Positions 35,883-45,983 of a stretch of 64,000 bases of DNA are shown piece after piece. The translations under genes and the position numbers were made by a program. The stretch is from an uncultured Sphingomonadaceae bacterium (lineage in GTDB: Bacteria; Pseudomonadota; Alphaproteobacteria; Sphingomonadales; Sphingomonadaceae): contig CAXTTJ010000005.1 of NCBI GenBank assembly GCA_964247235.1, positions 9,065 through 73,064 on the forward strand, in the 5' to 3' direction. The stretch's first letter is position 1. Each line of letters opens with the position of its first letter. The notes beneath the pieces are model-generated. The model ran no database searches and was not told the DNA's origin. It saw only the letters and a program-made list of their open reading frames with translations.

Positions 35883-36435
35883 GCTGAATTTATTGCGTAA
35901 AAAACTAAGGCAGCAGCGACAGTATAGTGCAGATAACGCAGAAAATCGGAACGAAGCCGCATTCAGGCGGTCGGCCCTGTTCGACGACGTGCTGAACGCC
36001 GCATCTTCGGTGGGCAGTTATCTTCCCTGTGGCGGAGAGCCTGATCCCGCCCGGCTGACGTCAAAGGCCACGTCATTCCCCGTTGTCGCGCCGGGTCATC
36101 GCATGATGACGTTTCATCGCTGGTCTGCGGGTGATCCGCTCGACACGACGCTGTGGGGCGGACAGCAACCCGCCGCGACGGCTGAGCGGGTTGAACCGGA
36201 CCTCATCCTCGTGCCGATGCTGGGGTTCGATCATGCCTTCAACCGCATCGGTCAGGGTGGCGGTTATTACGACCGCTATCTGGCCGCACATCCGCGTGCG
36301 CTGCGCATCGGCATTGCCTGGGACGTGCAACGGCTCGATCATATCGATGCCCGGCCGTGGGACGTGGCGATGGATGCCATCCTGACCGAAACCAGTTTCC
36401 ATGTGAAGGACTTGACCCGATGCCGACCCCGTTAG
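35863..36435 (+). CDS. ygfA: 5-formyltetrahydrofolate cyclo-ligase (start uncertain)
   Basis: DLILVPMLGFD, RIGQGGGYYDR, PWDVAMD. Confidence 0.9.
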   Translation: MVVPPTSLNLLRKKLRQQRQYSADNAENRNEAAFRRSALFDDVLNAASSVGSYLPCGGEPDPARLTSKATSFPVVAPGHRMMTFHRWSAGDPLDTTLWGGQQPAATAERVEPDLILVPMLGFDHAFNRIGQGGGYYDRYLAAHPRALRIGIAWDVQRLDHIDARPWDVAMDAILTETSFHVKDLTRCRPR

Positions 36436-36641
36436 GCCCGCCGAGCTGGCGCAAACCCGCTGGCATGGGCATCATCCTGCTCCTGATCACGGGATGGGCC
36501 GTCATCGCACTCATCGCCACGCCCGTCGTGATCCGGATGGCCTGGCCATTGCAAGCCTTGTTTTTCGGAGTTTTCGGAACAGTCTGGATCATCCCGCTCA
36601 AACCGCTGCTTCGCTGGATGGAACTGGGGCCACATGAATAG
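36420..36641 (+). CDS. Small two-TM protein, DUF2842-like
   Basis: PSWRKPAG...WIIPLKPLLRWME. Confidence 0.75.
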   Translation: MPTPLGPPSWRKPAGMGIILLLITGWAVIALIATPVVIRMAWPLQALFFGVFGTVWIIPLKPLLRWMELGPHE

Positions 36642-36664: not shown

Positions 36665-36741
<77 letters not shown>

Positions 36742-36790: not shown

Positions 36791-37066
36791 GGCGCGGCTG
36801 GAAACCGGCCATTGCACCTGGCCCCACCGAATTTTGACGTCAGAATGGCGAAAATCGGGCCTTTCACATTAACAAATTCATGGCAGTCAGCAATCGTTTG
36901 CAGGCAGCAACCGCTCTCTGTCTCCATCGACCGAGGCTGACGTCATTTTGTCAGATTGGCGTTAACGAATTTTTGGTTAGTTGGCGCGCATACCCCATTT
37001 CGAAGCAAAATTCCTATGGGGACTGCAATGACTTTGGGGGCCGGCTGGTCGATTTTGAACGTACGG

Positions 37067-38038
37067 ATGGGGCATATCGCGCCACTCGTCGTCGCGACTG
37101 CGTCCATCGTCTTTGCCCACCCCGCACATGCCGTCGGGACTGCGGCAGGCACCACGATCAGCAATACCGCAACCGCGACCTATACCGACGGCAGCGGCAA
37201 TCTCGTCAACGTGCCATCGAACAAAGTCGACATCCGCGTCGATGAGTTGCTTGACGTCAAGGTCGCGTCGGCCGACCCCGGTGATGTCGCGGCCCTGCCC
37301 GGCGCCACCAACCAGGTCCTGACTTTTTCCGTCACCAATACCGGCAATGGATCGGAAGCATTCCGGCTTGCCCCGATCAATGCCATCGGTGGCGATGCAT
37401 TTGACCCGACGACGACCTCGCTTGTCATCGACAGCAATGGCAATGGCGTTTATGATCCTGGAGTCGACACGGTGTACAACGCCGGATCGAACGATCCTGT
37501 GCTTGCGCCTGATACGTCGGTAAAAATATTTGTCCTGTCGACGGTCCCTGTCGGAGCCACAGATGGCCAGCGCGGCCAGACCGACCTGACGGCAACCGCC
37601 ATTACCGGAAGCGGCACACCCGGCACGACATTTGCCGGCCAGGGACAGGGCGGCGGCGATGCCATTGTCGGCAGCACCACAGCGCTTGGCCGCGACAAGG
37701 GCTTTTACATCATCAACACCGCGACCGTCAGCTTTGTGAAAAGCGCCGCGGTTGCCGATCCTTTTGGCGGAACCAAGTCAGTCCCCGGATCCATCATCAC
37801 CTACACGCTGGTCGCTACCGTGACGGGATCAGGATCGCTGGCCAATCTTGCCGTCGGCGATCCGGTTCCCGCTGGCACAACCTATGTTCCCGGGACGATC
37901 ACGTCGCAATCAGCGCCGGTCACCGACATCACTGATGCCGACAGCGGCGAATTTGCGACGAACCGCGTGGCGGTCCGTTTCGGCACCGTTGTCGGCGGTC
38001 AGACCCGCACTGTGACCTTCAAAGTAAAAATCAACTGA
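37067..38038 (+). CDS. Secreted DUF11/isopeptide-domain protein, subunit 1 (start 37028 or 37067)
   Basis: Signal peptide ending AHA, GTAAGTTISNTAT, DSNGNGVYD, VKS...PGSIITY...GDPVP...FKVKIN*. Confidence 0.8.
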   Translation: MGHIAPLVVATASIVFAHPAHAVGTAAGTTISNTATATYTDGSGNLVNVPSNKVDIRVDELLDVKVASADPGDVAALPGATNQVLTFSVTNTGNGSEAFRLAPINAIGGDAFDPTTTSLVIDSNGNGVYDPGVDTVYNAGSNDPVLAPDTSVKIFVLSTVPVGATDGQRGQTDLTATAITGSGTPGTTFAGQGQGGGDAIVGSTTALGRDKGFYIINTATVSFVKSAAVADPFGGTKSVPGSIITYTLVATVTGSGSLANLAVGDPVPAGTTYVPGTITSQSAPVTDITDADSGEFATNRVAVRFGTVVGGQTRTVTFKVKIN

Positions 38039-38061
38039 CTCTGATGGAAAGGATTCCCCCC

Positions 38062-38523
38062 ATGAAACTCCTTCTCGCCCTTTTCGCGCTTATGGTTCCA
38101 GTTGCGGCGCAGGCGACCAATGATGTCGCGCTGACGAGCAGTGTGTTTGTCGAGAAATCGGTGCCGCAAGCCGACGGCCATGCGCGCCTCATTCTCGAAG
38201 AACCGCGCGTCGTGGTTCCCGGTGACAAGCTGGTCTTTGTTCTTGCCTACAAGAATCTGGGCGGAAAGCCCGCAACCGATTTCGTCGTCACCAATCCGAT
38301 GCCGGGTGCCGTTGCCTATCAGGGCACGGGCGACGCGGGCGCGCTCGTGTCGATCGACGGCGGCCGGACGTGGGGCACACTCGCCACGCTGAAGGTTCGC
38401 AAGGCCGACGGCAGCGTGCGGGCCGCATATCCCGAAGATGTCACGCACGTCCGCTGGGCCATGAAATCGCCAATCCCGGTCGGAGCGGCCGGCAAGTTAA
38501 GTTTTCGCGGCGTCGTTCGCTAG
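38062..38523 (+). CDS. Secreted single-domain DUF11-like protein
   Basis: Signal peptide ending AQA; VVPGDKLVFVLAYKN...TNPMP. AAAGGA RBS. Confidence 0.8.
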   Translation: MKLLLALFALMVPVAAQATNDVALTSSVFVEKSVPQADGHARLILEEPRVVVPGDKLVFVLAYKNLGGKPATDFVVTNPMPGAVAYQGTGDAGALVSIDGGRTWGTLATLKVRKADGSVRAAYPEDVTHVRWAMKSPIPVGAAGKLSFRGVVR

Positions 38524-38592
38524 CTGCAACCCGTTTTCAGTGCCGACGGGTGGGGAAAGGCACTTTTGAGACCAGGAAGTGAGTAGAGTAAG

Positions 38593-39672
38593 ATGACCAG
38601 GACCATGACATTGCTGGCAGGCGCCAGTGGTATCGCACTGTCGGCCTTTGGTGCCACGTCCGCACTTGCGGCCGGTACGGCGTCGGGATCGGTTATTTCC
38701 AACGTTGCGACTGTCAGCTATTCGGTTGGCGGCACCGCACAGCCCGCGATTTCAAACGTCGCCAACACATTCACGGTCGACCGCAAAGTCGTGTTCCGTG
38801 CCGACGAAACCGCACCGATCGCCACGACGACCGTCGCGCCGGGTCAGGCGGTTGCCGTCACCACCTTCACGGTGTCGAACACGTCGAACGCGACGATGGA
38901 CTTTGGCCTGGCTGTCACGCAGCAGGCCGGCGGCCCTGGCGCGCACAGCAACACCGACAATTTCGACGTGACCACGCCGACGACCTATGCCGACACGAAC
39001 GGCAACGGCGTTTATGATGCCGGGACCGATCTTGCCATCACTTATCTCGACGAAGTTCTGCCTGACACCTCACGCACCGTGTTTGTCGTCGCAGCCATTC
39101 CGTCGGGCCGGGTCACGGGCGATGTCGCCGCTGTCACGCTGACAGCACAGGCGCGCGACGGTGGCGTGAGCGGAACGCAGGGTGCGGTCGCCGCCAACAC
39201 TGCGGGTGCGAACACTGCGGGTGTCGACACTGTCCTTGCCGACAGCGCCTATGATGCTCTGAACACCGCATCGGACGGATTTGCCGTGGCCAAGGACGAC
39301 TACACCGTTTCGGCCGCCGCAATCACCGTCAACAAGGTCAACCGCGTCATCGAGGATCCGATCAACACGATCGCCAGCGGCAATGCCGCCAATGCCAAGA
39401 TGATTCCCGGCGCCACGATCGAATATTGCATCATCGTTGCCAACGCAGCGGGCGGCGGGACAGCGACGGGCGTGTCGATCACCGATCCGGTTCCCAGCAC
39501 ATTGACGATCATTCCGGCATCGCTGCGCATCAACGGCACGGCATCGGGCAGCACCTGCTCGGGCGGCGTCGCAGGCGGCAGTGTTGCGGGCCAGACGGTA
39601 TCGTCGGGCACGCTCAACAATATTGCTGCCGGCGCCAATGTCGCCGTCTATTTCCAGGCAACGATAAACTGA
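38593..39672 (+). CDS. Secreted DUF11/isopeptide-domain protein, subunit 2
   Basis: Signal peptide, AGTASGSVISNVAT, DTNGNGVYD, IPGATIEYCIIVAN, ITDPVP, FQATIN*. Confidence 0.85.
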   Translation: MTRTMTLLAGASGIALSAFGATSALAAGTASGSVISNVATVSYSVGGTAQPAISNVANTFTVDRKVVFRADETAPIATTTVAPGQAVAVTTFTVSNTSNATMDFGLAVTQQAGGPGAHSNTDNFDVTTPTTYADTNGNGVYDAGTDLAITYLDEVLPDTSRTVFVVAAIPSGRVTGDVAAVTLTAQARDGGVSGTQGAVAANTAGANTAGVDTVLADSAYDALNTASDGFAVAKDDYTVSAAAITVNKVNRVIEDPINTIASGNAANAKMIPGATIEYCIIVANAAGGGTATGVSITDPVPSTLTIIPASLRINGTASGSTCSGGVAGGSVAGQTVSSGTLNNIAAGANVAVYFQATIN

Positions 39673-39679
39673 TGCGTCG

Positions 39680-39753
39680 CACATCCGAAATCGGGGGATT
39701 TTCGGGTGTGTGTCTGCTCGCGGCGTTCCTGTCTCTGCGGAGACGGGGACGCC
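39680..39753 (+). other. Two tandem stem-loops between subunit genes 2 and 3
   Basis: 39680-39710 (imperfect) and 39722-39753 (14 bp with G-U pairs, TGCG loop). Confidence 0.7.
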
Positions 39754-39781
39754 GTTTGGCCGTTTCAAAGGGGAGCCGATC

Positions 39782-40837
39782 ATGCGCACTATGACACTGC
39801 TGGCGGGGACCAGCCTGCTGACGCTATTGGTGCCAGTGGCGGCGCGCGCTGCGGGAACGGTCTCTGGATCGACGGTGTCCAACACGGCGACAGTCACTTA
39901 TGCAGTTGGTGGCGTGACGCAACCGACGGTTTCGAACACCCCCAACACATTCGTGGTCGACCGCAAGATCGTCTTTCGCGTCGATGAAAGCGCACCAATT
40001 GCCACGACAACGGTCGCGCCAGGCCAGTTGCTTGCCGTCACTACATTCACGGTCAGCAACACGTCGAACACAACGCTCGATTTCGGACTTGGCCTGACGC
40101 AACAGGTCGGTGGACCGGGCGCGCACAGCAATACCGACACGTTCGATGTCACGACTCCCGGACTTTTCGCCGATACCAACCTGAACGGCGTCTATGATGC
40201 GGGCATCGATCAGGCCATCACCTATCTCGACGAAGTGCTGGCCGACACGTCGCGCACGGTCTTTGCCGTCGCAAATATACCGGGCGGACAGGTGACCGGT
40301 GATGTTGCCGCCGTAACGTTAACCGCGCAGGCGCGTGATGGCGGGTCCGCTGGTGCGCAGGGCGCCATTTCTGCGAACACGACCGGCGCGAATACCGCAG
40401 CCGTCGACACGGTCTTTGCCGACACGGCCTATGACACGCTCAATGTCGCGGCAGATGGGCTGGGCGTGGCCAAGGATGATTATACCGTTTCCACCGCCGC
40501 CTTGTCAGTGACCAAAGTCAACCGCGTCATTTCCGACGGTTTCAACAGCGCGGTCAACGCCAAATTCATTCCCGGCGCGACAATCGAATATTGCATCATC
40601 GTTGCCAATGCCGTTGGCGGCGCCACCGCAACGGGTGTTTCGATAACCGATCCGGTTCCCGCAACGCTCAGCATTGTCGCAGGATCGCTCAGGATCAACG
40701 GCACGGCGGTCGTAAGCGTGTGTTCGGGGGGCGCCGCAGGCGGGACAATCACGGGACAGAATGTTGCATCGGGTACGCTGAACCCGATCCTGGCGGGGAC
40801 AAATAATGCCGTTTATTTTCAGGCAATCGTAAACTGA
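39782..40837 (+). CDS. Secreted DUF11/isopeptide-domain protein, subunit 3 (tandem paralog of subunit 2)
   Basis: Colinear with subunit 2 throughout; ends FQAIVN*. Confidence 0.85.
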   Translation: MRTMTLLAGTSLLTLLVPVAARAAGTVSGSTVSNTATVTYAVGGVTQPTVSNTPNTFVVDRKIVFRVDESAPIATTTVAPGQLLAVTTFTVSNTSNTTLDFGLGLTQQVGGPGAHSNTDTFDVTTPGLFADTNLNGVYDAGIDQAITYLDEVLADTSRTVFAVANIPGGQVTGDVAAVTLTAQARDGGSAGAQGAISANTTGANTAAVDTVFADTAYDTLNVAADGLGVAKDDYTVSTAALSVTKVNRVISDGFNSAVNAKFIPGATIEYCIIVANAVGGATATGVSITDPVPATLSIVAGSLRINGTAVVSVCSGGAAGGTITGQNVASGTLNPILAGTNNAVYFQAIVN

Positions 40838-40838
40838 C

Positions 40839-40895
40839 GGGTGGCGTGACGGGTTCGCAATCCTGTGACCCGCCATCCACTCTGGTACTTTTTTT
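40839..40895 (+). terminator. Imperfect hairpin plus T-tract (attenuator-like) before the platform gene
   Basis: GGGTGGCG...CGCCATCC, followed about 10 nt later by T7. Confidence 0.45.
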
Positions 40896-43800
40896 ATGCG
40901 TTTTGGGGTTAACCATCTGAAGGCCATCATGGCCCCCCTTGCCGCCCTGCTTGCAGTGGCGGCATTGCCCGTTCATGCCCAGACGATCAGCAACACTGCG
41001 ACGATCGCATGGCAGGTCGGTGCCACCACGCTGGTCAAGGATTCGAACAAGGTCGACCTTGTCGTCGAACGTCCGCCGACCACATTGTCATTGTCGACAT
41101 TCCAGTTTTCGGGCGATGCCGGCGCAACCCTGCTCCCTGTGCCGACCACGATCTGTCGCGGCAGCGGCGGGGACGTGCCCGTCATTCTTGAAGGCGCATT
41201 CGCCAACACCCGCCGCGACCCCGCCAGTGTCGAGCAGACAGACCAGATCCGTGCCGGTGAACCACTTGTCGTCGGCATCACATCAGCGGCTGACAATATC
41301 CGCGCCGACGCCGTTGATTTTCTTTCCGTCACGCTGACGACGCCGACCGGCGACGCCGAAACCCTGATCTTGCAGGAAACTGGCGCCAATACGAACCTGT
41401 TTGTTGGCGTAATTCGTACCGCTGCGGTTCCTCCTGAGGCTGTCAAGGGTGATTGCCAGTTGTCGCTGCACCCCGGCGACAACCTGACACTCGCCACGAC
41501 GCGCGTGCAGGACGGAACCTCGATCGCCAGCACACCCATCGACGTCCTCATCGACCCCTATGGCGTCGTTTTCGACAGTGCGGACGGCAAGCCGGTCGGC
41601 GGCGTGCGCGTGACATTGGTCGACGATGCCACTGGCCTGCCCGCCACGATATTCGGTGATGACGCGATTTCGAGCTTTCCGTCGACGATCACGACCGACG
41701 GCCTGCCCATCACCGACGCGAGCGGTACGGTCTATCGCTTTCCGGTCGGAGATTATCGCTTTCCCTTTGTCAGGCCCGGGCGATACCGGCTTTTGGTCCA
41801 GCCCCCGACGCCCTACACTGCACCGTCGCTTTCGTCACCGGCCGAACTGGCCGGTTTGCTGCGTCCTGACGGTTTGCCCTTCACGCTGATCGCCGGGTCT
41901 TACGGACAGCCATTTGTCGTCAATGATCCTGCGCCGGTGCGTGTCGATGTGCCCGTCGACAAGCCCGGTGCGGCACTGCAACTGCGCAAGACCGCGTCGT
42001 CGGCGGTGGCGGTCCCCGGCGATGCCGTGCAGTACCGCATCGTCGTGACCAATGGCGACGCCCTTCGCGCAACCGGAATCGTGACCGTGACGGATCATTT
42101 GCCCGCGACCATGCGCCTGAAATTGAATTCGGTTCGCTATAATGGAACAATACAATCCTATTCGGTTAGTAGCGACGGTCATGACCTGACAATTACCTTG
42201 CCACCGCTGGCTGCCCGCGCATCTGGTACGGTCACCTATCTTCTCGAAGTGCGTCCCGACGCACCTGCCGGGCAGACCATGAACCGGGCACAGGCGCGCG
42301 ACAGCCGGGGCACGGTCAGCGCGGTCGCAGACGCCATGGTCCGCATCGCCCGTGACACGCTGGGTGACCGGATGACGATCATCGGCCGCATCACTGATGG
42401 CGGTTGCACGGTCGATCCCGACAGCGCGAACGGCATCGGCGGTGTCCGGGTCATGCTCGAAGATGGCAGCTATGCCGTCACCGATCCCGATGGACGCTAT
42501 CATTTCGAAGGGGTCCTGCCCGGCACCCATGTCGTCCAGATGGACCCGTCGACACTGGGGCCGAGCCTGATCCCCGCCAATTGCACGCTGAATGCGCGCG
42601 CGGGTGGCAGCCCGATCTCGCGCTTTGTCGAGGGACAGGGCGGTGCGCTGATCCGTGTCGATTTCCGGGCACAGGCGGGCGTCAACCCGGCGCTGGGTGC
42701 GGCAAAGGCCCCTGCCCGTCCCAAACCCGCTGGCGAGGCCGCAGCGGCCGGTGCGGACCGCGACTGGTTCGACGGGCAGACCCCCGGTGTCGCCTGGCTG
42801 TTTCCGGCACCCGATCATAATCCGCGGACAAAGGCGGTGCGCGTCGTAATCAAGCATCTGCCCGGTCAGACCGTCACCCTGTTCTCGAACGGCAAAGCTG
42901 TCAGCCCGCTCACGCTCGACGGGACGCGCAAGAATGGCGATGGCAGCATTGCCGTGACAGTGTGGCGCTCGCTCGACCTTGGCGATCATGACACGCGGTT
43001 CACCGCCGAAGTGCGCGATGCCAATGGCGTCGTTGTCGACCGGCTCGACCGCACCGTGCACTATGCCTCGAACCCGATGAATGCCGCGCTTGTCCGGGAA
43101 AAATCGGTGCTGATCGCAGACGGCGTGACGCGCCCTGTCATTGCCGTGCGCCTGACTGATCGTGACGGCCACCCCGTGCACCACGGCCTGGTCGGTGACT
43201 TCGCAGTCCCCGCTCCCTATTTCCCCGCTGTCGAAGCCGATGCACAGGCCGCGCGCCAGCTCGCCGGTCTGGAACGTGCCCGCCCCGTCTGGCATGTGGA
43301 GGGCGAAGACGGCATTGCCTATATCGAACTCGAACCGACCACAGCGTCGGGGGCCTTGTCGATCACCCTGCCGTTCCGCGACGGCCAGGTGGCCCGCACG
43401 CAGCGCATCGACAGCTGGCTCGAACCCGGCAATCGCCCATGGACCGTCGTCGGCTTTGCGGCGGGCACTGTCGGTTTCAATACACTCAAGGGTCGGCTTG
43501 AAGGGGTTGGCGCGAACGGCAGCCACTGGCTGACCGACGGCCGCATCGCGCTGTATGCCAAGGGCCGGCTCAAGGGCAAATGGCTGCTGACTCTTGCTTA
43601 CGACAGCGACAAGCGTCAGGACGAAAGCCGTTTCGGTGGCGTCATTGATCCGCAAAGCTATTACACAATCTATGCCGATCGCAGCGAACGCCGCTACGAT
43701 GCCGCATCGGTCCGCAAACTTTATGTCCGGCTGGAACGCCCGCAATTCTATGCCCTGTTCGGCGATTTTGAAACCGGCATGGTCGAACCGCAACTGACGC

Positions 43801-45983
43801 GTTATGTGCGCAGTTTCAACGGCGTGAAGGCGCAATATCGCAACGAACATGTTGCCGCGACTGCATTTGCCGCCGACACGCCCTACCGCCACCGTCGTGA
43901 AGAAATCCAGGGCAACGGCCTGACCGGTCCCTATCAGCTTGGTGCGCGTGACATCCTGCCCAACAGCGAGCGCATCACGATTGAAATCCGTGACCGGCTG
44001 CGTTCGAACCGGATTGTCGAAACCCGTGCGCTGACCCGCCATATCGATTATGACATCGATTATGTCGCGGGCACGTTGCGGTTTCGCGATCCCGTGCTCA
44101 GCCGCTCTTCGCTGCTCGACCCGCAGGTCATCATTGTCGATTATGAAGTCGACGGCATCGGTCAGCGCGTCACCAACGCCGGCGGGCGCGCCACCTGGAC
44201 CAACAGCGCCAAGACACTTGTTGTCGGCGCCAGTGCGATCCACGACGAAAGCGATGCCGCCAGAACCAATGTCGGCGGCGTCGACATGCGCTACACACCC
44301 AATGCCCAGACCGAAGTCCGCGCCGAATTCGCACACAGCACCGCCAGTGCACGCAGCGGCGCAATCGCACCGACGACAGGTGACGCCAGCGCCAGCGCCT
44401 GGCTGGTCGAAGCCGAACATCACGGCCCCAAATATGATATTCTCGCCTATGCCCGCGAACAGCAGTCCGGGTTCGGGGTGGGTCAGCTCAACACGTCGGA
44501 AACCGGCACGCGCAAATATGGGTTTGACGGGCGGCTTCGCTTTGGTCCGGACCTGTCGCTTGTCGGCAGCGCGTGGCAGGAAGATTATCTGGCCAGCATC
44601 GCGCGGCGCCAGGCCGGGCAGGCGCGCATCGAATACCGGGCAAAAGGTGTTGACCTGCGCGCCGGGATCACATTTGCCAATGACCGTCTGGCCGATGGCC
44701 GCACGGCCCAGTCGCGCATTGCCCAGCTTGGCGCGACCAGACGTTTCATGGACAACCGGCTCGAACTCGACGCCCAGACCGAATTCGCAATCGGCGGCAA
44801 GGACGAAAGCATCGACGTGCCTGCCCGTCACCGTGCCAGCGCGCGCTTTGCCGTGACGCCTGCCGTCGCCATTGTCGGCAGTTATGAAATCGCCAAGGGC
44901 CAGACCATCGACGCCCGCACCGCACGGGTCGGCTTTGACGTGAAGCCATGGGCCGGGGGCCACATCGTCACCAGCCTCAATCAGCAAAGCATCGCCGAAT
45001 ATGGCCCGCGCAGCTTTGCGGCGTACGGCCTGTCGCAATCGCTGCCGATCGGCAAGCGCTGGACTGTCGATGTCACGCTCGACGGCAACAAGACTCTGAA
45101 CGGCATTGATCGCACCCGGGTGCTGACCACGGCCCAGCCGGTCAGCTCGGGCGGCTTCATCGGCAGCGACGGCACGCTGACCGAAGATTTCACGGCTGTC
45201 ACCGCCGGGGCCAGCTATCGCGGTGACCGCTGGAGCCTTGCTGGCCGCATCGAGGCACGTGCCGGAAACCGGACTGATCGCTATGGCCTCAACCTGTCCG
45301 TCCTGCGCCAGCTTGGCGAGGGTCAGGCCTTTGGCGGCGCCTTCGGCTGGTTCCGCGCCAATGAAGCCGCTGGCCAGACATCGGAATCGACATCGCTTGC
45401 CCTGAGCTGGGCCAATCGCCCGGACGACAGCCGCTGGGCCTGGCTCGAAAAGCTTGAGCTGCGCCGCGATGCCGTCACCAACGCCGTTACGGGACTGCCC
45501 GGCGCCATTGGTGGCGCGCCGTCGCTCGTCACGGGCAACGCCAGTGCGTCACGCATCATCAACAGTATCAGTGTCAACTGGTCCCCCGTCACCAAAGCCG
45601 AAGGACGTTACCTCGGGCGCAGCGAAGTCTCGCTGTTCTGGGGCAGCCGCTACACGTCGGACCGGATCGACCGGGACGACCTGTCGGGCTGGTCGAACGT
45701 CGTGGGTGCAGACATCCGCTTTGACCTGGGCGAAACAGTGGATATCGGCCTCGCCGGCACCGTGCGCGAAAGCACGGGTGGCCGCGCCATCAGCTATTCG
45801 GGTGGCCCCTCGATCAGCCTGTCACCGTTCGAAAACAGCTATATCACCGTGGGCTACAACGTCGTCGGTTTCAACGACCGCGACTATGGCGATACCCGCT
45901 ACACACGCAGCGGCCCCTATCTGACGCTCCGCCTGAAATTCGACCAGAATTCACTCGGCGCACTGGGCCTCGGACGCCGGTAA
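40896..45983 (+). CDS. 1695-aa exported protein: Ig-like/DUF11/SdrD-B-like domains plus a large C-terminal beta-barrel-like region
   Basis: Signal peptide; LRKTA..VPGDAVQYRIVVTN..VTDHLP; GVRVMLEDGSYAVTDPDGRYHF; alternating amphipathic strands in the C-terminal half. Confidence 0.8.
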   Translation: MRFGVNHLKAIMAPLAALLAVAALPVHAQTISNTATIAWQVGATTLVKDSNKVDLVVERPPTTLSLSTFQFSGDAGATLLPVPTTICRGSGGDVPVILEGAFANTRRDPASVEQTDQIRAGEPLVVGITSAADNIRADAVDFLSVTLTTPTGDAETLILQETGANTNLFVGVIRTAAVPPEAVKGDCQLSLHPGDNLTLATTRVQDGTSIASTPIDVLIDPYGVVFDSADGKPVGGVRVTLVDDATGLPATIFGDDAISSFPSTITTDGLPITDASGTVYRFPVGDYRFPFVRPGRYRLLVQPPTPYTAPSLSSPAELAGLLRPDGLPFTLIAGSYGQPFVVNDPAPVRVDVPVDKPGAALQLRKTASSAVAVPGDAVQYRIVVTNGDALRATGIVTVTDHLPATMRLKLNSVRYNGTIQSYSVSSDGHDLTITLPPLAARASGTVTYLLEVRPDAPAGQTMNRAQARDSRGTVSAVADAMVRIARDTLGDRMTIIGRITDGGCTVDPDSANGIGGVRVMLEDGSYAVTDPDGRYHFEGVLPGTHVVQMDPSTLGPSLIPANCTLNARAGGSPISRFVEGQGGALIRVDFRAQAGVNPALGAAKAPARPKPAGEAAAAGADRDWFDGQTPGVAWLFPAPDHNPRTKAVRVVIKHLPGQTVTLFSNGKAVSPLTLDGTRKNGDGSIAVTVWRSLDLGDHDTRFTAEVRDANGVVVDRLDRTVHYASNPMNAALVREKSVLIADGVTRPVIAVRLTDRDGHPVHHGLVGDFAVPAPYFPAVEADAQAARQLAGLERARPVWHVEGEDGIAYIELEPTTASGALSITLPFRDGQVARTQRIDSWLEPGNRPWTVVGFAAGTVGFNTLKGRLEGVGANGSHWLTDGRIALYAKGRLKGKWLLTLAYDSDKRQDESRFGGVIDPQSYYTIYADRSERRYDAASVRKLYVRLERPQFYALFGDFETGMVEPQLTRYVRSFNGVKAQYRNEHVAATAFAADTPYRHRREEIQGNGLTGPYQLGARDILPNSERITIEIRDRLRSNRIVETRALTRHIDYDIDYVAGTLRFRDPVLSRSSLLDPQVIIVDYEVDGIGQRVTNAGGRATWTNSAKTLVVGASAIHDESDAARTNVGGVDMRYTPNAQTEVRAEFAHSTASARSGAIAPTTGDASASAWLVEAEHHGPKYDILAYAREQQSGFGVGQLNTSETGTRKYGFDGRLRFGPDLSLVGSAWQEDYLASIARRQAGQARIEYRAKGVDLRAGITFANDRLADGRTAQSRIAQLGATRRFMDNRLELDAQTEFAIGGKDESIDVPARHRASARFAVTPAVAIVGSYEIAKGQTIDARTARVGFDVKPWAGGHIVTSLNQQSIAEYGPRSFAAYGLSQSLPIGKRWTVDVTLDGNKTLNGIDRTRVLTTAQPVSSGGFIGSDGTLTEDFTAVTAGASYRGDRWSLAGRIEARAGNRTDRYGLNLSVLRQLGEGQAFGGAFGWFRANEAAGQTSESTSLALSWANRPDDSRWAWLEKLELRRDAVTNAVTGLPGAIGGAPSLVTGNASASRIINSISVNWSPVTKAEGRYLGRSEVSLFWGSRYTSDRIDRDDLSGWSNVVGADIRFDLGETVDIGLAGTVRESTGGRAISYSGGPSISLSPFENSYITVGYNVVGFNDRDYGDTRYTRSGPYLTLRLKFDQNSLGALGLGRR

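Follow-up and report, generated by a model that had tools for sequence, protein, structure and literature searches.

The DUF11 domain (PF01345), which has been renamed CLIPPER, forms a Lys-Asn isopeptide bond under catalysis by an Asp residue, as seen in crystal structure 9IFR (PMC12617251). In Clostridium perfringens BsaA, a donor strand at the N terminus is inserted into the neighboring subunit, after which an isopeptide bond links the two molecules (PMC11580942), and the thread filaments of Sulfolobus likewise combine donor-strand insertion with a subsequent intermolecular isopeptide bond (PMC9715654). Here, we analyze a five-gene operon in a 64,000-nucleotide stretch of contig CAXTTJ010000005.1 from an uncultured Sphingomonadaceae bacterium (this whole stretch is called the window, and coordinates refer to it unless another contig or locus is named). 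Its last gene encodes a protein of 1695 amino acids (aa), below called the giant (open reading frame 40896..45983, + strand). By sequence comparison, the N terminus of the giant corresponds to two strands, the isopeptide Asn included, that are absent from the truncated CLIPPER domain of the operon's subunits, and its C-terminal half is predicted to be an outer-membrane barrel of unusual size. We judge the chances to be about even that the giant is the cell-proximal anchor, and at the same time the conduit, of a fiber built from split CLIPPER domains. Literature searches returned no description of this system.

The locus shares the domain family and its Lys/Asp/Asn triad with the CLIPPER domains described so far (9IFR; PMC12617251), and the copy inside the giant is a standard, complete one. 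It departs from the CLIPPER domains of fibrillar adhesins in that the domain of the subunits is cut before its last two strands, whereas the Asn strand is found at the N termini of other proteins, so that the bond would form between chains. BsaA and the archaeal threads offer, by analogy, a precedent for the exchange-and-lock chemistry proposed here, although they have TasA-like or thread folds and belong to monoderm or archaeal envelopes, with no outer membrane and no barrel anchor. Chaperone-usher pili (Fim, Pap, and Csu, with FimD/PapC and PapH) are comparable in having a tip protein without extension, a large basal outer-membrane barrel, and an end piece that only donates. However, the barrel predicted here has ~37 to 45 strands compared with 24 in ushers, two strands rather than one would be donated, the isopeptide triad is split across the interface, and barrel and terminal donor are a single polypeptide. 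Sortase pili (BcpA, SpaA/SpaD, EbpC, and the basal EbpB) provide the best fold matches for the stalk of the giant and resemble the proposed fiber in their covalent shaft and dedicated basal anchor; in contrast to them, the linkage proposed here would be autocatalytic and the anchor would be a membrane barrel instead of peptidoglycan. No sortase gene is present in the operon, and the subunits, which end in ...KIN, ...TIN, and ...IVN, carry no LPXTG-type signal.

The five genes are co-directional (37028-45983, all on the + strand) and encode, in this order, subunit A, a small 159-aa protein, subunit B, subunit C, and the giant. All five products start with Sec-type signal peptides, as judged by inspection. 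Searches with Pfam and NCBIfam detected DUF11/TIGR01451-type domains among them and a CarboxypepD_reg domain in the giant, and nothing else. The same set of subunit(s), small protein, and giant recurs in several classes of the Pseudomonadota. Subunit A (336 aa, 37028..38038, +) consists of a signal peptide, a donor hairpin, a middle β-sandwich domain, and a truncated CLIPPER/DUF11 acceptor with K238 and D278 that terminates in ...VTFKVKIN. Subunits B (359 aa, 38593..39672, +) and C (351 aa, 39782..40837, +) are 72% identical and share a layout in which a donor hairpin of a second class is combined with a truncated acceptor (K248 and D298 in B, K245 and D290 in C). When we compared 18 diverse subunits, drawn from 12 loci, the Lys in the first strand of the acceptor and the Asp in the motif x-D-x-I/V/L-P were invariant in the C-terminal domains, and each of the 18 domains stopped one strand short of the Asn strand. 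With that strand absent, the C-terminal domains do not hold the Lys/Asp/Asn triad within one domain; the sole conserved Asn strand of the subunits is the N-terminal one, and the hairpin Asn is found in 17 of the 18. The Asn with which A, B, and C end was considered as an isopeptide partner in cis and rejected, because relatives end in different residues (N, D, Q, K, R, or DPS) and because this terminal position falls, in the alignment, nine residues before the Asn strand.

The giant starts with a Sec-type signal peptide (40896..40979, +), for which we placed cleavage by inspection after VHA (residue 28), a position that is kept in homologues. The donor hairpin follows directly (residues 29 to 58, QTISNTATIAWQVGATTLVKDSNKVDLVVE; 40980..41069, +), as indicated by alignment, conservation, and profile, with N33 (40992-40994) as the candidate isopeptide Asn. 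Aligned to the hairpin of subunit A, TTISNTATATYTDGSGNLVNVPSNKVDIRVD, it is identical at 16 of 31 positions with one gap (pairwise E value of 6e-4): the mature giant begins with QTISNTAT...SNKVDLVV and subunit A with TTISNTATATY...SNKVDIRVD. No other stretch aligns between the two proteins. The pattern is that of the last two DUF11 strands, an “N-T-A” strand followed by an “S-N-x-V-x-x-V” strand. A prior, sequence-only reading had stated that the giant opens with the same N-terminal strand as the subunits. The match itself is borne out, and the shared element is indeed a separable module, but it is a two-strand hairpin carrying the isopeptide Asn and not a single strand.

Conservation singles out the same element. 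N33, A35, and N51 are invariant in an alignment of 115 homologues of the giant (35 to 84% identity), and in all full-length homologues that we inspected, the motif lies directly after the signal peptide. Because a hidden Markov model of the short hairpin passed just 46 of 116 cluster representatives at an E value of <0.01, we turned to a loose regular expression with a control, which found the motif within the first 130 residues of 94 of the 116 representatives, compared with 13% of control windows, which were cut from the barrels of these proteins. Giants from other Pseudomonadota classes start with x-I/V-x-N-T/I/V-A, and each is directly preceded by a subunit with the same start. In the 2.46-Mb genome, the hairpin profile matched only A, B, C, and the giant (38 to 44 bits), with the next best hit at 11 bits; since these four proteins were among the seeds of the profile, the informative part of this result is that the genome holds no further matches. 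Within 37028-41069, the hairpins belong to two classes, one ending in SN-x-V-D/T-x-x-V (A and the giant) and the other in N-x-F-x-V-D-R-K (B and C; in B, VISNVATVSY...NTFTVDRK). Sphingomonad operons with both types of subunit (L038 and L039) keep this split, and L040 and L042 show one class each, a distribution which suggests that assembly may be ordered.

If the hairpin were the piece that the acceptors lack, appending it should extend their resemblance to a complete domain. The Asn strand of the giants' own DUF11 (MNRAQA) proved too idiosyncratic for this comparison, which was therefore run with the broad Pfam model and with reversed and shuffled controls. Appending a true hairpin to an acceptor raised the Pfam DUF11 score by 2.0 to 6.0 bits in all eight chimeras, which covered six scoreable subunits, while 14 control chimeras with reversed or shuffled hairpins changed by -3.0 to +0.8. 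The hairpin of the giant added 4 to 5 bits on the acceptors of A and B. At the level of sequence and profile, truncated acceptors and complementary hairpins are seen, as a subunit fold completed by a neighbor's extension would require, and the profile evidence for the hairpin as the missing piece is consistent yet modest.

The giant itself has no such gap to fill. Its internal DUF11 (residues 361 to 487; 41976-42356, +) carries K365 (41988), D400 (42093), and N463 (42282), all three invariant in the 115 homologues, and residues 361 to 469 exceed the family cut-offs (36.1 bits versus 24.6 for PF01345 and 36.5 versus 24 for TIGR01451). The spacings, 35 residues from Lys to Asp and 98 from Lys to Asn, are close to the 33 and 91 of 9IFR (PMC12617251). 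As this DUF11 is complete and a hairpin is present, with no open acceptor, the giant is a donor only; a protein that only donates has to occupy one end of a head-to-tail chain, which argues for its role as the anchor. This copy sits in a stalk of about six β-sandwich domains (41082..43433, +; AlphaFold model and Pfam), which also holds the CarboxypepD_reg-like domain. An AlphaFold model of the 832 N-terminal residues of the mature protein, built with 115 sequences, reached a pLDDT of 84.8 and placed in order the β hairpin (pLDDT, 74 to 83), a four-residue linker (pLDDT, <50), and the sandwich domains, interrupted by a Pro/Ala-rich linker (42696-42779, +). The best Foldseek matches of the stalk were Gram-positive sortase pilins (E values down to 3e-14), comprising the shaft pilins BcpA, EbpC, SpaD, and SpaA and the basal pilin EbpB.

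The remainder of the giant is a C-terminal module of 846 residues (43443..45980, +), predicted by AlphaFold and Foldseek to be a giant outer-membrane β-barrel. Its AlphaFold model (30 sequences of 29 to 68% identity; pLDDT, 75.7; pTM, 0.63) is an antiparallel meander nearly throughout, with 45 strands according to DSSP, 37 of which have at least 9 residues, and would give a single barrel of ~37 to 45 strands if it closes. Hydrophobic and polar residues alternate along the strands as they do in outer-membrane proteins, and the last strand, GPYLTLRLKF, resembles a β-signal and is followed by a 13-residue tail. The best Foldseek matches were exclusively outer-membrane barrels: Deinococcus SlpA (E value of 2e-8), MtrB, TonB-dependent receptors, the FimD and PapC ushers, LptD, and SprA. 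The TM-scores were low (0.15 to 0.28), as is expected where the number of strands differs. Neither single-sequence nor profile searches yielded a relative of the module in Pfam, NCBIfam, or the sequences of the PDB. Still, it is widespread: in all 1101 clusters (50% identity) found at an E value of <1e-30, the module is C-terminal and follows N-terminal parts of ~600 to 1900 residues, and among 401 genomes sampled from the phylum, 48 contain it.

The most conserved stretch of the module (residues ~1006 to 1075, GNGLTGPYQL...DYDIDYVAGTLRF; 43911..44120, +) is a cluster of invariant residues that is modeled as a small β domain with short strands, inserted after about the first eight or nine strands of the barrel. 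It matched no family and is a candidate for a plug or docking domain. The first ~300 residues of the module, that is, the first strands together with this insert, also match shorter proteins of 1100 to 1440 aa in other genomes (e.g., G380:C25:26960-28165, G135:C1:224112-225269, and G055:C7:113959-114840), which suggests, as far as sequence similarity goes, a wider barrel superfamily sharing this N-terminal core.

The largest solved single-chain barrels that we know of are SprA, with 36 strands, and SlpA, with 30. SprA, from the type 9 secretion system, and Deinococcus SlpA resemble the module in fold class and size range and are among its best Foldseek matches, but they show no sequence similarity to it, their TM-scores are 0.19 to 0.28, and their partners and domain context differ. 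Compared with type V autotransporters (types Va and Ve), the barrel is C-terminal and is modeled with ~37 to 45 strands, and it matched neither the 12-strand PF03797 family nor the intimin/invasin-type barrel family. The one hit of this kind came from the domain that adjoins the barrel (43101-43433), which gave a weak Big_1/Invasin_D3 match below threshold (E value of 2.7e-5; 24.6 bits versus a cut-off of 34.9). Big_1/Invasin_D3 is the type of domain that adjoins the barrel in inverse autotransporters. A barrel of ~37 to 45 strands would have a lumen of several nanometers, with room in principle for folded Ig-like domains. We consider it plausible that the giant acts as an export pore; this follows from the size of the barrel and from the fact that the conserved operon encodes no other outer-membrane component, and from these alone.

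One might read the appearance of FimD and PapC among the Foldseek matches, together with the fact that the operon encodes no separate PapD-like chaperone (none of the five proteins matched that family), as signs of a mere usher-like catalyst, whose barrel exports and polymerizes the subunits while the hairpin of the giant serves as a transient chaperone or priming strand outside the final fiber. We regard this as very unlikely. The module matched no usher family (PF00577 and the PapC N and C domains) at an E value of ≤10, its TM-scores to ushers are only 0.22 to 0.25, and the invariance of N33, the equivalent of the bond-forming Asn, points to locking rather than to transient binding. On this matter the sequence-only reading was right to set the giant apart from classical ushers, to which it has a resemblance of fold class only. 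Its other observations on the giant have also held up: the Ig-like domains reappear as the sandwich domains of the model and are pilin-like according to Foldseek, the Lys/Asp/Asn candidates of the internal DUF11 turned out to be invariant, and the roughly 850 aa of barrel-like strands correspond to the modeled meander. Of its suggestion that one polypeptide could be pore, anchor, and polymerization primer, the anchor and the barrel are supported by the donor-only argument and the models, the pore is plausible, and the primer is the less likely case discussed below.

Put together, these observations allow a mechanism to be proposed. The subunits would enter the periplasm via Sec and join head to tail, the hairpin of one protein completing the last domain of the next by donor-strand complementation, and a Lys-Asn isopeptide bond, formed spontaneously, would then probably lock each junction. 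The hairpin of the giant would insert into the acceptor of the cell-proximal subunit, so that the six-domain pilin-like stalk would link the fiber to the giant's own outer-membrane barrel, which would double as the export conduit for the subunits; the distal end would be taken by acceptor-only proteins, namely the small 159-aa protein and an orphan 632-aa protein encoded elsewhere in the genome. From the sequences we infer both the insertion in trans and the covalent bond between chains; how assembly is ordered, the function as a pore, and the stalk topology are inferred as well.

The same anatomy could also be read in the opposite direction. The giant might be a primer or nucleator that exports its own stalk in the manner of an autotransporter and displays a free hairpin, to which secreted subunits add distally, each one regenerating a free hairpin, until an acceptor-only protein caps the tip; this would be akin to the growth of curli on surface-bound CsgB. 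The succession of signal peptide, passenger, and C-terminal barrel does resemble autotransporters, and capture by a click-type isopeptide bond would need no energy source to operate extracellularly. On the other hand, this scheme requires subunits to reach the tip by diffusion, with losses to the medium. Moreover, to our knowledge, the strand-exchange and sortase pili that have been studied well (Pap/Fim, Mfa/Fim type V, and Spa/Ebp) all grow at the base and add their anchor last. Nothing in the sequence fixes the order of assembly; overall, we think this scheme unlikely. Terminators or anchors that are added last include PapH, Mfa2/FimB, and the basal sortase pilins, and by analogy with these we favor the view that the giant acts last, as terminator and anchor.

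Several observations weigh against the giant as a fiber anchor and conduit. The pTM of the barrel model is just 0.63, and closure into one barrel, the exact number of strands, and the site of the insert are provisional; how a pore of such dimensions would be gated is a further difficulty. The sequence data assigned no particular acceptor to the hairpin of the giant. The score gains of the chimeras are small in absolute terms, one of seven subunits was not recognized as DUF11, and with a profile made from the giants' own DUF11 only, no hairpin gained anything over shuffled versions. Finally, the hairpin of the giant is already folded in the monomer model, where docking in cis on the first stalk domain is possible, and the subunits could close on themselves in cis.

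The last of these points could mean that the proteins act independently, with hairpins folding in cis or onto an adjacent domain, subunits that are monomeric surface or periplasmic proteins, and a giant that is a self-contained adhesin or porin; the common N terminus would then stem from shared descent or be a targeting signal for export through the barrel. The fair confidence with which the monomer model folds the hairpin and the missing gain with the giants' own profile both fit such a scheme, and AlphaFold monomers do not separate cis from trans. However, a cis-only scheme leaves unexplained why donor-only and acceptor-only proteins occur together in one conserved system, and equally the invariant Lys and Asp in domains that have no Asn of their own. 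In addition, the similarity between the giant and subunit A ends exactly where the hairpin ends, with the low-confidence linker next. For these reasons, we consider independent action of the proteins quite unlikely.

In the anchor model, the distal end of the fiber calls for a protein that accepts but does not donate. The small protein (159 aa; 38044..38523, +) consists of a signal peptide and a single truncated DUF11-like domain, lacks a donor hairpin, and has Asn in place of the catalytic Asp (VTNPMP). The protein is conserved, with the motif D/Y-T-H-I/V-R-W, at 9 of 12 diverse loci searched, while its Lys and Asp are not. In a chimera of the small protein with a hairpin, the DUF11 match was not extended. 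It could be a non-covalent cap or a chaperone for the hairpins. A genome-wide search for acceptor domains further revealed an orphan protein of 632 aa on contig 28 (L043:8053-9951, minus strand), encoded between the glpX and recJ genes. It comprises a signal peptide, an unassigned domain of ~210 residues, two prealbumin-like domains of the SpaA type (SpaA_3/SpaA_4), and a C-terminal truncated acceptor. This acceptor has the Lys and Asp of the B/C type and lacks the Asn strand, and the protein has no donor hairpin. In a distant genome, the operon starts with the gene of an 802-aa protein (L032:13066-15474), and the acceptor domains of this protein and of the orphan share 35% identity over a stretch that reaches the final residue. 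The orphan protein is likely an adhesin-like fiber tip.

Beyond the anchor itself, it is tempting to speculate that these operons define a new class of pili in double-membraned bacteria, in which pieces of an adhesin stalk are cut inside a self-crosslinking domain and an export pore of ~40 strands is itself the covalent anchor. In this class, the barrel would match or exceed every solved single-chain barrel in size, and chaperone, sortase, and energy source would all be unneeded. We hold this broader proposal tentatively, at somewhat less than an even chance. If it is true, many Pseudomonadota build covalently locked surface fibers by a route outside the textbook pilus classes, and the giant would be the first case in which an outer-membrane channel and the terminal subunit of a fiber are one polypeptide. 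A barrel among the largest known would also raise questions about its folding by BAM and its gating, and the split CLIPPER pair would provide a natural counterpart to SpyTag/SpyCatcher that is orthogonal to it.

Some features of the locus remain to be mentioned. Databases place the start of the giant at M12 (ATG at 40929), which gives a protein of 1684 aa instead of the 1695 aa counted from 40896. An open frame of 1067 aa that runs antisense within the gene of the giant (41835-45038, minus strand) was rejected as a gene; family evidence is lacking, and the frame probably owes its existence to the high G+C content. Two strong RNA hairpins occupy the intergenic region between the genes of subunits B and C (39670..39780, +; -62.4 kcal/mol, z = -5.2), and another hairpin followed by a run of seven U residues lies between the genes of subunit C and the giant (40835..40898, +; -24 kcal/mol, z = -2.8). 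A scan for consensus promoters and terminators found nothing above chance and did not flag the latter. These intergenic hairpins may act as attenuators to control the ratio of subunits to anchor, or else may be repeat elements; as a speculation, the hairpin with its U run could attenuate transcription and thus lower the amount of anchor relative to the subunits. Downstream, the operon is bordered by a convergent CoA-transferase gene, and its upstream neighbors are a tRNA-Asp gene and a 5-formyltetrahydrofolate cyclo-ligase gene. The tRNA-Asp (GTC) gene (36665-36741, minus strand) lies ~290 bp upstream of the first fiber gene, and between it and the cyclo-ligase gene, a small open reading frame encodes a membrane protein of ~60 aa (36357-36641).

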